Shown here piece by piece: positions 39,699-46,592 of a stretch of 64,000 bases of DNA (position 1 is its first letter; every line of letters begins with the position of its first letter). The stretch lies in NCBI GenBank assembly GCA_012455605.1, contig GCA_012455605.1_3618.1, one strand, 5' to 3'. Below the pieces are notes generated by a model. That model ran no database searches. It was not told where the DNA came from and saw only the letters and a list, made by a program, of their open reading frames with translations. This stretch comes from a phage. Position numbers and translations under genes: made by a program.

Positions 39699-40460
39699 TT
39701 AAAGTTCCATAAAGTTTTCTACAGTTTCAATAAATACTTTATCAGAGAAAGCGTCAACAGCACCGTTAAACCATACAGGGATCCCGCGATCCTCATATTG
39801 ATAAAGGTCGCTACGTGAAATGCCACTTCCATCTGCACTCTGCGAATCATACTTGTTTACAATCAGCAGTTTTGTGCCTTTACAAGTAGCAGGAAACAAT
39901 TCCCAGTTAAAATTAATAACTGTGTTAGAACAACCTACCAGGATCACCATATCATTGCTTGTGAGAGATGTCAACAGGTCATACATGTCTGTATACTTAG
40001 GAGCAACCTCACCGAAGAACACTACATTGGGCTTAACCCAGGTATACTTGCCTGTATCTACCTCCGTGTATCCGATATTTTTAATTACATCATTACCTTC
40101 AGCATCTTCGTAGGTGATTTCAGGCAAATACCCGTGGACATGTAAAATATCTTCATGTTTTACACCAGCACGCTCCAGCAAATCATCTACATTGGTGGTA
40201 AGGTTGATCACACGACCAGACCAGCGGGAATACCACTCAGCGATCCGAAGATGTGCAAGGTTAGGATCAACACTGCCCAGAGCTACACGACGTGCATTGT
40301 AAAAGTCATGCACCTTATAGTAGTTCTTGGCAAAGGTGTGGATGTTGCACACCTCATCGATGCTGAAATTCTCCCACATTGCAGTGCTACCAGATCGGAA
40401 AGTGGGAATACCAGATTCAGCGCTCAAACCAGCACCGGAGATAATAATCAGTCGTCGCAT
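39699..40460 (-). CDS. Sir2-family NAD-dependent protein deacylase / ADP-ribosyltransferase
   Basis: ISGAGLSAESGIPTFR (sirtuin Rossmann motif), TTNVDDL, VHG. Confidence 0.8.
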   Translation of the reverse strand: MRRLIIISGAGLSAESGIPTFRSGSTAMWENFSIDEVCNIHTFAKNYYKVHDFYNARRVALGSVDPNLAHLRIAEWYSRWSGRVINLTTNVDDLLERAGVKHEDILHVHGYLPEITYEDAEGNDVIKNIGYTEVDTGKYTWVKPNVVFFGEVAPKYTDMYDLLTSLTSNDMVILVGCSNTVINFNWELFPATCKGTKLLIVNKYDSQSADGSGISRSDLYQYEDRGIPVWFNGAVDAFSDKVFIETVENFMEL

Positions 40461-40468
40461 AAGTGTCC

Positions 40469-40819
40469 TCAGTAGATGTTTTGTTTAATCTCTATTCCAA
40501 ACTTTTTAAACGAGTCAGCTGCAAGCATGAATTTACGAGCCGCTGATGGATTAGAAGTATGTACGAAAATCTTCACGTTGTCAACCACGGGAGGCTTACC
40601 GAATACAAATTTTTCCTCCAACATGGATAGGCAATCATATCCTTCGAATACTTCTCCTAGGTCGTTGTCCATATGCCACTCAGAAACGCGTCTGTAGAGC
40701 TTTCCCTTATCGTTAATAAAATCCATAAACTCGGAGGAATTCTTCAGCCAAACAGCGTCTGGGAGTCCATAATTTGACGGATCTCTCAAATCATCCAGCC
40801 ACACAATCAACTTCTTCAT
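40469..40819 (-). CDS. hypothetical protein with receiver/Rossmann-like N-terminus (MKKLIVWLDDLRDP)
   Basis: ORF; ATGA overlap with the RNA ligase stop; start placed at the internal ATG. Confidence 0.4.
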   Translation of the reverse strand: MKKLIVWLDDLRDPSNYGLPDAVWLKNSSEFMDFINDKGKLYRRVSEWHMDNDLGEVFEGYDCLSMLEEKFVFGKPPVVDNVKIFVHTSNPSAARKFMLAADSFKKFGIEIKQNIY

Positions 40820-41751
40820 TGCATATAGTCCTCGTTGTGGAAATAGTGGTCGAGTATCTCCCTGCGTTCCTGCTCCAGTAGGCAGTTCCACACATCTTCT
40901 GTGTAATTGCTACGAATGAAGTTTACCATGCCGTAAAACTCTTCGTCAACACGTTTAAAGATATCATCATCCCAAATCTTCCAAGCTTTACCCCTCATTA
41001 CGGCCTTCCGTGCCAGATAGTATGGAGACTTGATCTTCAGCTGCAGATCATAAGGGTAGTAAGGCTTACGAATCATATACCCTTCACCTCTTGTTTCTGC
41101 AGCTAATTCTTTTGCATAGCTGAACGGAATTTCACGCACAGTGTGAGGACGTTTTGCACCAAGGTATTTGGCAATCCCATCTAAAGCTGCCTCTGGGAGC
41201 ATTATTCCAGAATCATTATATCTGCAACCTATCAAATATGCGCCATGATCTTCCTGAACAATATGCGGATCTGAAGGGTGACAAATTTCAAACATGAATG
41301 TCATGTTTTCATTGCCCATAACCTTCTTGATAAGATCTAAATTACCACATTGCTCCTGGATGGTTTTCTTTGCGAGGTTACAATATGGGGAATCAAGAGA
41401 TCCGGTTGTTGAGAACAATAGTTCACCTTTATGAGATGATACCACACCGAGGAATCCGTTCTTTTTCTCTACCGCCGTCACAAGCTTATTGTCAGGCAGG
41501 TTGGTGGAATTTTCTCCCAAGTTAAACACTTTTGTGAAGGGCCATGCCACAACATTCCCTTCATTACCGACAACAATGCCTCGGCACTCCAGTAATCGAG
41601 GAGACAAATGCCATAAGTTGTTGTAGAATACTTTTCTGGCATATTTATAGATCTTTAACCCAAGATCTGGGTAATATCTGCTGGTTACAAGACCTTTGTC
41701 AACTAGGTCGTCTGCATTAAAATACTTCATCATACGTTCCTCATTTGTCAT
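40816..41751 (-). CDS. RNA ligase-like nucleotidyltransferase (tentative)
   Basis: EKKNGF (motif I Lys), EGYMIRKP (motif IV), LKIKSPYY (motif V). Confidence 0.5.
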   Translation of the reverse strand: MTNEERMMKYFNADDLVDKGLVTSRYYPDLGLKIYKYARKVFYNNLWHLSPRLLECRGIVVGNEGNVVAWPFTKVFNLGENSTNLPDNKLVTAVEKKNGFLGVVSSHKGELLFSTTGSLDSPYCNLAKKTIQEQCGNLDLIKKVMGNENMTFMFEICHPSDPHIVQEDHGAYLIGCRYNDSGIMLPEAALDGIAKYLGAKRPHTVREIPFSYAKELAAETRGEGYMIRKPYYPYDLQLKIKSPYYLARKAVMRGKAWKIWDDDIFKRVDEEFYGMVNFIRSNYTEDVWNCLLEQERREILDHYFHNEDYMQ

Positions 41752-41794
41752 TTTGTCCCTTTATCCTGCCACACAAATAACCCAGTGTCAACAC

Positions 41795-41823
41795 TTGAAA
41801 TTAACAAAACAGTTAGGTATACT
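41795..41823 (+). promoter_or_regulatory. sigma70-like promoter (TTGAAA-17-TATACT)
   Basis: in the divergent intergenic region upstream of the kinase gene. Confidence 0.5.
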
Positions 41824-41851
41824 ATCATTGAAATTAAAACGGAGGGTTACT

Positions 41852-42259
41852 ATGTCTAAAATGCTATATATCGTGCGTGGTCTACCAGGGTCTGGCAAAT
41901 CAACACTGGCAAATGCGCTATCTTTAGAAGGTCTGTACCCACATTTTGAGAACGACATGTTCTGGTACGACGATGACGGCAATTACAACTGGGATGCAAG
42001 TAAAGTAACACTTGCAGCAAAATGGTGCAAAGATAACGTAGAAGATATGATGCGTATGGGATACGACCGTATCGTGGTAAGTAATACGTTTACAAAAGAA
42101 AAATACGTGCAAAAATATATTGACATGGCAATCAGCTATGGGTATAGTTATACCGTAATCGTGGTTGAAAACCGCCACGGTAATAAAAGCATTCATGCTT
42201 CAGACGAGGTTGTGGATCGTATGGAGCGCCAGCTTAAAAACTGCATCAAACTTAAATGA
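41852..42259 (+). CDS. polynucleotide 5-prime-kinase-like P-loop kinase
   Basis: MLYIVRGLPGSGKST resembles the T4 Pnk kinase N-terminus (ILTIGCPGSGKST); start at ATG after RBS ggaggg. Confidence 0.55.
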   Translation: MSKMLYIVRGLPGSGKSTLANALSLEGLYPHFENDMFWYDDDGNYNWDASKVTLAAKWCKDNVEDMMRMGYDRIVVSNTFTKEKYVQKYIDMAISYGYSYTVIVVENRHGNKSIHASDEVVDRMERQLKNCIKLK

Positions 42260-42266
42260 GGAATGT

Positions 42267-42821
42267 ATGAAATACTTTGTAACAAGCGACACACACTTTC
42301 TCCACCAGCGGGTCATGGAGTTTGATTCATGTCAAAAACACAGATCTCAATATGATCACAATCTTGACAGTATGAATGCGGGAATCATCACCAAGTGGAA
42401 CTCTGTTGTGTCACCTGCAGACACTGTGTTCCACCTGGGAGATATTGCGTGCACTAATGATAAGAATATCAACAACTTACTTCCAGATATTCTAAATATG
42501 TTGAACGGACATATTATTCTTGTTCGTGGCAACCATGACACAAGGACGACTGTCAGAATTATGAAAGAGTTCGGTCATGAGGTTGTAGATTATTACGAGC
42601 TTCGCCACAACAAGAATTTGATCTGTATGAGCCATTACCAGTTTGCAAAGTGGAACAGAAAGCCTCACGGATCAGTCCAACTGTTCGGTCATGCTCACGG
42701 AACCACACAACAGTTGTTTGGCAGACAGCTTGATGTCGGTTGGGATGTGTGGGGGAGACTCTTACCATTAGAAGAGGCATACCGTATTGCAATGAGTTTT
42801 GCTATTGACAGCGGGGAGTAA
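42267..42821 (+). CDS. calcineurin-like metallophosphoesterase
   Basis: SDTHF, GDIA, GNHD and GHAHG metallophosphatase motifs. Confidence 0.65.
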   Translation: MKYFVTSDTHFLHQRVMEFDSCQKHRSQYDHNLDSMNAGIITKWNSVVSPADTVFHLGDIACTNDKNINNLLPDILNMLNGHIILVRGNHDTRTTVRIMKEFGHEVVDYYELRHNKNLICMSHYQFAKWNRKPHGSVQLFGHAHGTTQQLFGRQLDVGWDVWGRLLPLEEAYRIAMSFAIDSGE

Positions 42822-45733: not shown

Positions 45734-45805
45734 GCCCTGTTAGCTTAGTGGATAAAGCAGCGGCCTTCTAAGCCGTTGACACTGGTTCGAGTCCAGTACG
45801 GGGTG
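45734..45805 (+). tRNA. tRNA-Arg (anticodon TCT)
   Basis: hand-folded cloverleaf: acceptor GCCCTGT/ACGGGGT, anticodon arm GCGGC-cttCTaa-GCCGT, T-arm ACTGG-ttcgagt-CCAGT, encoded CCA. Confidence 0.75.
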
Positions 45806-45812
45806 CCAAATT

Positions 45813-45896
45813 GGGGAGTTATCCCGTAGAGGTAGCGGTGTAGACTGTAAATCTATTGTCATTGCGACTCGGGTGGTTCGACTCCACCACTCCCCA
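45813..45896 (+). tRNA. tRNA-Tyr (anticodon GTA)
   Basis: acceptor GGGGAGT/ACTCCCC, anticodon arm with CTGTAAATCT as in E. coli tRNA-Tyr, long variable arm, encoded CCA. Confidence 0.7.
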
Positions 45897-46013
45897 CCAA
45901 ATTTATATTTTTAGATGCATAAATAATACAGATAATGGCATTGATATTTATCGTCGTTTATACTAGTCACTAACTGCTCGAAAATCAGTGTCATTATCAG
46001 TATAATTTATAAA

Positions 46014-46101
46014 GGAGGGTAGGGAGCAATGGTGCTCAAGCGGTCTTGAAAACCGTCCCGTTGAGGATGACTCGATGATGGTTCGATTCCATTACTCTCC
46101 G
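46014..46101 (+). tRNA. tRNA-Ser (anticodon TGA)
   Basis: acceptor GGAGGGT/ACTCTCC, anticodon arm GCGGT-cttgaaa-ACCGT, long variable arm, discriminator G, encoded CCA. Confidence 0.7.
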
Positions 46102-46202
46102 CCACATTGTTGACCTTGTAATTAAGCGAAAGCCGGAAGCAGAACCGGATTATCAAATGTTACAGTCGTCATCGCCGACTAGCAACATGGTCAACATACT
46201 GA

Positions 46203-46299
46203 GCTAGGTAAGCCCTTTGGCAAGGGCGAGGATTTTTAATCCTGAAAATAGACGAGGTAGTCGTTGAATACATAGGTGGTTCGATTCCATCACCTAGCA
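46203..46299 (+). tRNA. aberrant tRNA-like gene (Leu-type body, non-canonical anticodon loop; possible pseudo-tRNA)
   Basis: acceptor GCTAGGT/ACCTAGC, D-arm GCCC-tttggcaa-GGGC, T-arm GGTGG-ttcgatt-CCATC, discriminator A; anticodon region AGGAT-tttta-ATCCT has a 5-nt loop (or UUU in the alternative fold); over-long variable region; no encoded CCA. Confidence 0.4.
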
Positions 46300-46306
46300 C
46301 CTTTTT

Positions 46307-46379
46307 GCTGATGTAGCACAATCGGTAGTGCAATTGATTTGTAATCAATAGGTTGTAGGTTCAAGTCCTGCCATCAGCA
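46307..46379 (+). tRNA. tRNA-Thr (anticodon TGT)
   Basis: acceptor GCTGATG/CATCAGC, anticodon arm ATTGA-tttgtaa-TCAAT, encoded CCA. Confidence 0.75.
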
Positions 46380-46383
46380 CCAA

Positions 46384-46455
46384 GGCCCTGTAGCTGGAAG
46401 GTTCAAGCAAGCGACTCATAATCGCCAGACGGTGGTTCAATTCCACCCAGGGCCA
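46384..46455 (+). tRNA. tRNA-Met or Ile2 (anticodon CAT)
   Basis: acceptor GGCCCTG/CAGGGCC, anticodon loop ctCATaa, T-arm GGTGG-ttcaatt-CCACC, encoded CCA. Confidence 0.7.
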
Positions 46456-46469
46456 CCAAATAATAAATA

Positions 46470-46543
46470 CTCCGCGTAGCTCAGCTTGGTAGAGCGCCTG
46501 ATTTGGGATCAGGAGGTCGAGTGTTCGAATCACTCCGTGGAGA
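46470..46543 (+). tRNA. tRNA-Pro (anticodon TGG)
   Basis: acceptor CTCCGCG/CGTGGAG, anticodon arm CCTGA-tttggga-TCAGG, encoded CCA. Confidence 0.75.
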
Positions 46544-46592
46544 CCACTTTCAGTTATACTTTAAACATATACAAACAAAAGGAACCTTTAAA

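Follow-up and report, generated by a model that had tools for sequence, protein, structure and literature searches.

AriB, the nuclease of the PARIS defense system, cuts the host's tRNA-Lys(UUU), its tRNA-Thr(UGU) and its tRNA-Asn(GUU) at U36AAUC|A41, and phage T5 escapes PARIS by means of a tRNA-Lys that carries U39A and A41C (PMC11464382, PMC12409363). Coliphages with a tRNA-Lys(UUU) are reported to encode tRNA ligases too, and the tRNA-Lys(UUU) of coliphages has been linked to PrrC (PMC10264068). We analyzed a 64,000-nucleotide (nt) stretch of phage DNA (GenBank assembly GCA_012455605.1, contig GCA_012455605.1_3618.1), called the window throughout, which carries at 46203-46299 an odd tRNA gene with a shortened anticodon arm. 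The 921 bases around this element match Escherichia phage Murica at 100% and phage rV5 at 99.9% identity, and the window phage is an rV5-like Vequintavirus (Vequintavirinae). We tentatively favor the reading that the element is a functional, non-canonical lysine-accepting tRNA(UUU) of about 97-100 nt, which would substitute for host tRNA-Lys under attack by anticodon nucleases (PrrC, PARIS). As judged by its sequence, the odd tRNA fits none of the defined classes of non-canonical tRNA.

Read directly, the sequence of the element gives a cloverleaf in which the acceptor, D and T arms are intact; all of its parts lie on the plus strand. The acceptor stem pairs GCTAGGT (positions 1-7, 46203-46209) with ACCTAGC (46292-46298) at seven of seven positions. 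The linker A8 A9 (46210-46211) leads into the D arm GCCC-TTTGGCAA-GGGC (46212-46227), which has a 4-bp stem and G19 at 46220. Column 8 of the family alignment is invariably A and column 14 invariably T; the U8:A14 tertiary pair of canonical tRNAs is absent, with A8 and U14 in its place across the family. The D stem could be extended to 6 bp with a 4-nt loop TGGC through U14-A21 and U15-A20, as given by RNAalifold and by the minimum free energy (MFE) fold; these two pairs are predicted only, and their positions do not vary among members, so they yield no covariation signal. A single G (46228, invariant alignment column 26) separates the D stem from the anticodon stem. The variable region spans 30 nt (46244-46273) and comprises the flank GAAAA(TA), the hairpin GACGA-GGTAG-TCGTT (46251-46265) and the flank GAATACAT (46266-46273). 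The T arm GGTGG-TTCGATT-CCATC (46275-46291) forms five of five pairs in all 27 variants described below, and its loop in the window copy fits the canonical pattern TTCRANY. The sequence-only reading of this DNA had claimed a tRNA-like gene with intact arms, an anticodon arm that departs from the canonical form and an unusually long variable region, and each of these claims is borne out.

The anticodon arm, AGGATTTTTAATCCT (46229-46243), measures 15 nt against the canonical 17 nt of a 5-bp stem and a 7-nt loop. It consists of AGGA (46229-46232), the loop TTTTTAA (46233-46239) and TCCT (46240-46243), with the anticodon TTT at 46235-46237 when the stem is taken as 4 bp and the loop as 7 nt. The loop ends T46233 and A46239 can pair, and the arm can fold in three ways: 5 bp with a 5-nt loop, 4 bp with a 7-nt loop, or 6 bp with a 3-nt loop (the unconstrained MFE). 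In the 4-bp reading the loop is U32 U33 U34 U35 U36 A37 A38, with the canonical U33 and a purine at 37. The discriminator A73 and an encoded CC follow the acceptor stem (46299-46301); the next base is T, and a T run continues to tRNA-Thr at 46307. This run is specific to the rV5 lineage, where it stands in place of the CCA encoded by relatives, and 46273-46306 (the acceptor/T-arm hairpin followed by GCACCTTTTT) has the look of a terminator-like pattern. The earlier remark that CCA is not encoded, unlike in the neighboring tRNAs, therefore stands for the final A; the CC is encoded, and relatives outside the rV5 and Av-05 lineages encode the full CCA.

The MFE fold computed with RNAfold is the cloverleaf, at -34.2 kcal/mol (z=-4.1), and none of 200 shuffles folded as well. 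The Rfam tRNA model RF00005 matched the element over its full length (model positions 1-71) with 35.5 bits, above the gathering score of 29 (E=3.7e-5), and other than tRNA and tRNA-Sec no Rfam family matched. The Infernal/Rfam alignment reads the loop as UUUUUAA with the anticodon UUU, at the cost of a deletion and, at the top of the stem, a non-canonical pair. ARAGORN reports tRNA-???(atcc) at 46203-46301. A normal tRNA-Leu(TAA), the call that would have refuted the sequence-only reading, was thus returned by neither program. We also considered tRNA-Leu identities (UAA, CAA, NAG) and rejected them: the loop TTTTTAA gives TTT, no paired register gives TAA, and there is no Leu anticodon. Together with A8/U14 and with U73 in almost all relatives, against A73 in tRNA-Leu, this overturns the label 'Leu-like' given to the gene at first sight. 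The 4-base anticodon 'atcc' of ARAGORN, on an ATTTT/AAAAT stem with an 8-nt loop, was likewise rejected, with 36% of cells paired in the homologues, the same as in shuffles and slid controls. Minus-strand open reading frames (ORFs) at 46169-46348 and 46204-46293 overlap the element; the compensatory base-pair pattern favors an RNA gene over a protein-coding reading.

We collected homologues by BLAST with the element and then with its diverged copies, together with exact-pattern scans of viral and metagenome collections. The 27 distinct variants recovered come from five genera of Vequintavirinae (Vequintavirus, Avunavirus, Seunavirus, Mydovirus and Henunavirus), uncultured contigs and Salmonella phage UTK0002, an N4-like podovirus of the Schitoviridae. 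Identity among the homologues falls to about 71-76%, indicating that they are not recent copies of one another. In a scan for bacterial chromosomal copies, the exact 22-mer AATACATAGGYGGTTMGATTCC found no match in 185,579 species genomes. The acceptor and D stems, like the T stem, are completely paired in every variant (7/7 and 4/4 pairs, 27 of 27).

Covariation was assessed in an alignment of 17 homologue sequences, in which 99.5% of cells were paired, a value reached by none of 500 shuffles; with partners slid by 1-3 columns the figure was 34-45%. Ten pairs showed changes on both sides, and compensatory changes were present in all four stems as well as in the tertiary pair 19:56. Pairs 3:70 and 4:69 of the acceptor stem were compensatory, with G1:C72 and C2:G71 invariant; three of the four D-stem pairs and four or five anticodon-stem pairs covary across the family, and the T-stem pair 51:63 changes from U-A to C-G. 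The D loop TTTGGCAA goes with the T loop TTCGATT, and the D loop TTTGTCAA with TTAGATT. The elbow pair thereby changes from G19:C56 to U19:A56 (9 sequences versus 8, alignment columns 18 and 90), a covariation indicating that the RNA folds into the L-shape of a tRNA. The anticodon arm is 15-16 nt long in all members. The variable region is 30-39 nt across the family, and its hairpin differs in sequence and length between genera; one hairpin pair of the window copy, A46255-T46261, is G-C in Av-05. The flanks GAAAA and AATACAT are invariant in 17 of 17 aligned variants, and inspection of them for K-turn, loop-E and tetraloop-receptor motifs gave no convincing match. Pairing of the anticodon loop with the variable hairpin (UCCA/UGGA in some Seunavirus copies) was set aside, copies of the FENT2 type with the same loop having no partner by eye.

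A divergent 137-kb contig of the rV5 lineage offered a measure of constraint at this locus: the element was 98% identical, the canonical tRNAs 89-100% and two intergenic spacers 80-82%. This pattern of identities shows purifying selection on the element as strong as that on the neighboring canonical tRNAs. On the comparative evidence, the element is a real, evolutionarily maintained gene of a family found in phage tRNA clusters.

The members differ in their anticodon arms. Type A, the rV5-like form, has AGGA-UUUUUAA-UCCU with the anticodon UUU, A73 and an encoded CC, and type A', the Av-05-like form, has AGGA-UUUAUAA-UCCU with the anticodon UAU, U or C at 73 and no CCA. Type B, in Salmonella, Cronobacter, Klebsiella, Enterobacter and Proteus phages, has AGGUC-C[A/C/U][U/A/G]CCA-GACCU with the anticodon NCC, U73 and an encoded CCA; this arm is 5 bp with 6 nt, or 4 bp with 8 nt if the closing C-G pair is open. 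Type C, in Erwinia phages, the N4-like phage and metagenomes, has GGGC-[C/U]AUCAAA-GCCC (4 bp with 7 nt) with the anticodon UCA, U73 and an encoded CCA. A73 is confined to the UUU lineage, the 20 type B and type C variants carry T73, and the Av-05 lineage carries T or C. In type C, position 32 varies between C and U opposite A38, which is loop-like behavior and makes 4 bp with 7 nt the more uniform description, type A included. Both loops proposed at the outset, one of 5 nt and one of 7 nt with UUU, are possible; the family is better matched by the latter, on a 4-bp stem. The occurrence of a type C member in the N4-like phage UTK0002 indicates that the family moved between unrelated phage families. 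The two stretches 2398-2486 and 2488-2597 of the UTK0002 segment hold this member, which is unannotated, and, directly upstream of it, an unannotated class II tRNA with the acceptor GGAAGAT and the anticodon UGA.

The lysine identity set of E. coli is the UUU anticodon with A73, and the bacterial glycine set is U73, G1:C72, C2:G71, C35 and C36 (PMC9976931). Type A carries the lysine set exactly (TTT at 46235-46237, A at 46299), and type B carries the glycine set exactly, G1:C72 and C2:G71 being invariant in the family. The co-change of anticodon and discriminator suggests that aminoacylation matters to these RNAs. Six of the type B copies are nearly identical; of the six substitutions inferred among them, four hit the pair of nucleotides immediately 5' to the invariant CCA (P ~2e-6). 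Positions 33-34 of type B thus appear to be diversifying with 35-37 held, as expected if charging or decoding constrains 35-37.

For the window copy, the rV5-type loop UUUUUAA (U33, anticodon UUU, A37 and A38) and A73 together make up the complete E. coli LysRS identity set. We propose that the odd tRNA would be transcribed with tRNA-Ser, tRNA-Thr, tRNA-Met and tRNA-Pro, released by RNase P and 3' trimming, and given its complete CCA end by the host CCA-adding enzyme. Charged with lysine, it could read AAA and AAG and stand in for host tRNA-Lys(UUU) cut by PrrC or RloC in the anticodon loop or by AriB at 40|41. The altered body would make it a poor nuclease substrate, the presumed features being the short anticodon stem with C41, A8/U14, the Sec-like D arm and the very long variable region. 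Related phages would use the same chassis with other combinations of anticodon and discriminator.

The host tRNA-Lys arm GTTGA-CTTTTAA-TCAAT and the phage arm share an 8-nt run, TTTTAATC, across the loop and the 3' strand of the stem. At the AriB site the phage has U36AAUC|C41 and the host U36AAUC|A41, so that C41 is T5-like and U39 is kept. Apart from the anticodon arm and the generic T loop, no run shared with host tRNA-Lys was noted by eye, and a class II body with a 30-nt variable region and homologues with other anticodons indicate that the odd tRNA is not a tRNA-Lys by descent. Like the tRNA-Lys(UUU) of T5 (PMC11464382, PMC12409363), the odd tRNA is phage-encoded, belongs to a tRNA cluster and has the anticodon UUU. 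In both, the AriB site is altered relative to the host (U36AAACC41 in T5, U36AAUCC41 here, each with C41), and T5 also encodes other AriB-target isoacceptors, as the window phage does with tRNA-Thr(UGU) directly 3' of the element. The T5 molecule is, however, a tRNA-Lys variant with two substitutions near the cleavage site, whereas the odd tRNA has a 15-nt arm, a 30-nt variable region and A8/U14. It also keeps U39, whose change (Mut1) abolishes cleavage in T5, and its resistance, judged from the sequence, is putative. Counted in favor of the lysine-accepting replacement are, further, the nearby genes for an Rnl1-type ligase, a kinase and a phosphoesterase and the absence of a canonical tRNA-Lys from the window, where ARAGORN found none; none is reported for rV5. 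A comparison can also be made with the phage tRNAs substituted in the anticodon loop that were proposed to evade nucleases (van den Berg et al. 2023, PMC10264068). There, too, variation lies beside the anticodon with identity positions fixed, and tRNA-Lys(UUU) co-occurs with a phage RNA ligase; those tRNAs are canonical with point changes, whereas the whole architecture of the odd family is altered, with a loop of 7 or 6/8 nt.

Several points weigh against a lysine-accepting tRNA that works in translation. According to a review of non-canonical tRNAs, the anticodon stem is 'consistently 5 bp' and the listed exceptions are all elongated (Sec, Pyl, mitochondrial Ser, allo-tRNA), and the stem of the odd tRNA is one helical layer short; relative to those exceptions, a shortened stem appears to be new. 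The unmodified anticodon arm tends to close, leaving a loop of 3 to 5 nt in MFE folds. U33 is not kept in the relatives, type C having A33 and type B having A, C or U in its 6- or 8-nt loop. Erwinia phage Hena1, which has a UCA copy, uses TGA for 42% of stops (79 long ORFs), compared with 33% in the window; this lack of TGA avoidance indicates that at least the Hena1 UCA copy is not an efficient decoder, and on the same figures we rejected an efficient opal suppressor for the UCA relatives. A canonical tRNA-Gly(UCC) is also present in a type B phage, making a simple supply of tRNA redundant there. Finally, half of the gene has been lost in Escherichia phage V18 (NC_041937), which shows that the odd tRNA gene is dispensable in some settings. 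In V18 a natural deletion has left the 5' half of tRNA-Tyr joined to the 3' part of the odd gene (955-1047 of the segment) and has removed tRNA-Ser with the spacer; the anticodon arm of V18 tRNA-Pro is also disrupted, and three intact tRNAs are left.

A wider proposal, which we regard as rather doubtful, is that the family is a portable, nuclease-proof chassis, built from the 7/5 acceptor branch, the Sec-like D arm, the long variable region with its invariant A-rich flanks and the anticodon stem lacking one layer. In this proposal, anticodon and discriminator would be exchanged together (UUU/A73, NCC/U73, UCA/U73) as the chassis moves between unrelated phages, and it would replace, or shield as a decoy, whichever host tRNA is attacked by local immune nucleases or toxins. 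Four of the six canonical tRNAs of the phage (Ser, Thr, Met and Pro; cluster at window 45734-46546) belong to the isoacceptor families that the HEPN nuclease Ec1ApeA is reported to hit hardest. PARIS, too, has a prime target in Thr(UGU), and the host-like site UAAUCA is retained in the tRNA-Thr of the phage. The whole tRNA cluster may be a counter-defense set instead of a means of codon compensation.

The rival that survives best, and to which we give about the same doubtful standing as to the swappable chassis, is a non-decoding tRNA mimic. Such a decoy or sponge would be processed as tRNAs are and perhaps charged, would display on a tRNA body a likeness of the anticodon arm of host tRNA-Lys (in other phages, other arms), and would bind immune effectors or toxins that target tRNA unproductively, sparing the host tRNA. 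An anticodon arm that is too short in every member would fit this role, as would its being the least conserved part of the molecule in both length and sequence, the anticodon arm being the most conserved part in ordinary tRNA families. The two hypervariable loop nucleotides in otherwise identical copies fit an arms race, and the lack of TGA avoidance in Hena1 despite its UCA copy points the same way. The near identity of the arm to the host tRNA-Lys arm around the AriB site would suit a competitor, and the PARIS authors suggest that some viral tRNAs may compete for AriB (PMC11464382, PMC12409363). U73 with G71, as found in types B and C, is also the recognition pair of the Salmonella toxin TacT (PMC9976931). 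A decoy has, however, no obvious need for a discriminator that switches with the anticodon, or for fixed C35, C36 and A37 with only 33-34 varying. The rV5 loop keeps U33, A37 and A38, which mimicry of a cleavage site in the stem does not need, and a sponge would be effective only at very high copy number or with very tight binding.

We consider it unlikely that the element is a recoding tRNA, that is, a low-efficiency decoder active in frameshifting at A-rich sites (rV5-like forms), quadruplet or -1 reading (type B) or UGA read-through (type C). A non-standard anticodon loop size is a classical signature of frameshift suppressor tRNAs, among which those with 8-nt anticodon loops, such as the sufD-type, are known. 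The type B loop resembles them in reaching 8 nt if the closing C-G pair opens, and the ARAGORN call for the window copy contains a 4-base anticodon; type C, with UCA, bears the annotation tRNA-sup(tca) in NC_048828. The ARAGORN fold is not conserved, its 36% of paired cells being no better than shuffles, and the window copy itself has an ordinary 7-nt UUU loop; type B lacks U33, and its extra nucleotide is on the 5' side of the anticodon. We identified no recoding site, the 42% share of TGA among the stops of long Hena1 ORFs makes general suppression unlikely, and the function would have to differ in every lineage.

Even less probable is a cis-acting element for processing or termination, either punctuation for RNase P or RNase E or a leaky terminator (the acceptor/T hairpin with CCTTTTT) within the tRNA operon. 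A pattern scan flags 46273-46296 with the T run as terminator-like, and the position between tRNA-Ser and tRNA-Thr, after a structured 98-nt spacer, would suit such a role. The T run is, however, found in the rV5 lineage only, relatives having TCCAAA. Punctuation has no need for an elbow pair, an anticodon arm, the nucleotides of an identity set or an encoded CCA, and the neighboring tRNAs are already processing signals. That the gene is the decaying, functionless remnant of a class II tRNA (Leu, Ser or Tyr), a pseudogene, is very improbable: this reading could draw on the non-canonical anticodon arm, the missing final A of CCA, the omission of the gene from the RefSeq rV5 annotation and the rV5 paper, the V18 deletion through the gene, the UAU of the Av-05 lineage with U or C at 73 and one variant with G1-U72, but it is contradicted by compensatory changes that extend to every stem and to the tertiary pair, by the absence of a broken pair in 27 variants from two phage families, and by 98% identity against 80-82% in the spacers together with strictly conserved single-stranded flanks. 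Of the three fates that the sequence-only reading had suggested, altered decoding and a regulatory RNA remain live, and the pseudogene falls away.

Architectural parallels are offered by tRNA-Sec, allo-tRNA and selC*-type tRNAs (PMC5389517, PMC7609411), non-canonical class II tRNAs. They share with the odd tRNA a long variable arm, the loss of U8:A14, a D arm able to form 6 bp with a 4-nt loop (predicted in the odd tRNA) and the use of one scaffold for many anticodons, UCA and UAU included. tRNA-Sec (RF01852) is the best Rfam match of the relatives, at 39.0 bits for Hena1, 29.4 for Av-05 and 27.0 for SSE121, all below the gathering score of 47; for the window copy the Rfam tRNA model beats the tRNA-Sec model. 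The acceptor/T branch of the odd tRNA is 7/5 in all variants, not 8/5, 9/4, 8/4 or 9/3, its anticodon stem is shortened where theirs is normal or elongated, and its discriminator is U or A in contrast to G73. C2:G71, which the odd family carries, is an antideterminant against SerRS (PMC9976931). Non-decoding tRNA-like RNAs (mascRNA, viral 3' tRNA-like structures, the tRNA-like domain of bacterial Y RNA) differ from the odd tRNA, which is an independent gene in a cluster with a full acceptor end and aminoacyl-tRNA synthetase identity sets. YrlA has a single Rfam match in the region, at 25 bits against a gathering score of 69, and this runs across the Met and Pro tRNAs and not the odd tRNA.

The records conflict over this gene, which is annotated as tRNA-Lys (AAA) in BASEL phages and elsewhere as tRNA-OTHER, tRNA-TERM, tRNA-???(atcc), a hypothetical protein or nothing at all. 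RefSeq rV5 and the rV5 genome paper list six tRNAs and omit the odd one. Our search of the full-text literature on Vequintavirus tRNAs, phage tRNA-like RNAs with long variable arms and phage allo-tRNAs found no description of it. We see a real chance that the odd tRNA represents either a working tRNA of a new structural class or an anti-defense decoy made of RNA. If charged and used, it would break the rule of the 5-bp anticodon stem and offer a new natural chassis for tRNA structural biology and genetic-code engineering. If the swappable-chassis proposal is true, the family would be the first functional tRNA class with a shortened anticodon stem and a modular anti-defense RNA. If a decoy, it would be an RNA anti-defense factor against tRNA-cleaving immunity (PARIS, PrrC/RloC, ApeA), a field in which only near-canonical viral tRNAs are known. 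Well over a hundred of the rV5-like phages sequenced carry the gene, and several of these phages have been put forward for biocontrol of E. coli O157; a consistent description would correct the records and flag a testable determinant of host range.

ARAGORN places the odd tRNA in one cluster of seven genes, in the order Arg(tct), Tyr(gta), Ser(tga), tRNA-???(atcc), Thr(tgt), Met(cat) and Pro(tgg). The 98-nt spacer separates the element from tRNA-Ser, and tRNA-Thr(UGU) follows immediately 3' of it (start at 46307); all six neighboring tRNAs encode the full CCA. A promoter-like site, TCGAAA-17-TATAAT (45978-46006, plus strand), matches the consensus at 10 of 12 positions in a consensus scan and sits 5' of the unit formed by tRNA-Ser, the spacer, the odd tRNA and tRNA-Thr, -Met and -Pro; it is a putative promoter. 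The spacer itself (46105-46202) folds into a multibranch structure (MFE z=-2.6) and is 80% conserved in the divergent relative. Its closing stem of about 8-9 bp joins UGUUGACC with GGUCAACA, and its inner hairpins are CCGG/CCGG and GUCG/CGAC; it could be a further small structured RNA or a degenerate tRNA. The CAT-anticodon tRNA at 46384-46458 is Met according to ARAGORN and the rV5 paper and Ile (ATA) according to the BASEL annotation, and may be a lysidine-type tRNA-Ile2.

The ligase, kinase and phosphoesterase genes lie 3.4-5.4 kb upstream of the odd tRNA. The gene at 40816-41751 on the minus strand encodes a T4 Rnl1-type RNA ligase (Pfam PF09511, E=5.9e-15; 'RNA ligase' in the annotation of phage RudolfGeigy). 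On the plus strand, 41849-42259 encodes a P-loop (polynucleotide) kinase (Pfam AAA_33, E=3.6e-10; annotated polynucleotide kinase) and 42267-42821 a metallophosphoesterase (Pfam Metallophos_2, E=1.3e-6; annotated phosphoesterase). The latter two can be read as an RNA end-healing pair. A SIR2-family gene lies beside the three genes at 39699-40460 on the minus strand. Taken together, the genes in window 39699-42821 resemble a kit for healing and sealing RNA, placed just upstream of the tRNA cluster. Hena1 carries the same ligase, kinase and phosphoesterase trio, plus a CCA-adding enzyme (tRNA nucleotidyltransferase).

We noted further structured elements beside the odd tRNA in related phages. 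In Seunavirus and Avunavirus a conserved element of about 170 nt lies directly 3' of the odd tRNA (KE22 segment 1617-1790, Av-05 segment 1112-1285). It is itself tRNA-like, with the acceptor AGTGTAT/ATACACT, a D-arm start TAGCTCAG, an anticodon-like arm and a D loop enlarged by an insert of about 100 nt. Its T loop has 4 nt, with GGTT-GAGT-AACC covarying with GGTG-GAGT-CACC, and it was missed by ARAGORN and gave no Rfam hit. Between the odd tRNA and tRNA-Leu, Mydovirus, Henunavirus and some Seunavirus have conserved intergenic elements about 190 nt long; these elements are closed by inverted repeats of 10-16 bp, e.g., ACATTTTATGTACGGG...CCCGTACATAAAATGT, and had no Rfam match. The Av-05 segment also contains, at 1298-1380, an unannotated class II tRNA-like gene with the loop CTTCTAA (UCU) and an encoded CCA, which ARAGORN missed and which scored 29.6 bits, below threshold, with the Rfam tRNA-Sec model. 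Lastly, 18 records named 'Campylobacter phage' (MG065635-MG065690, host C. jejuni) are 99-100% identical to the tRNA cluster of rV5-like coliphages and are probably mislabeled or contaminant assemblies.

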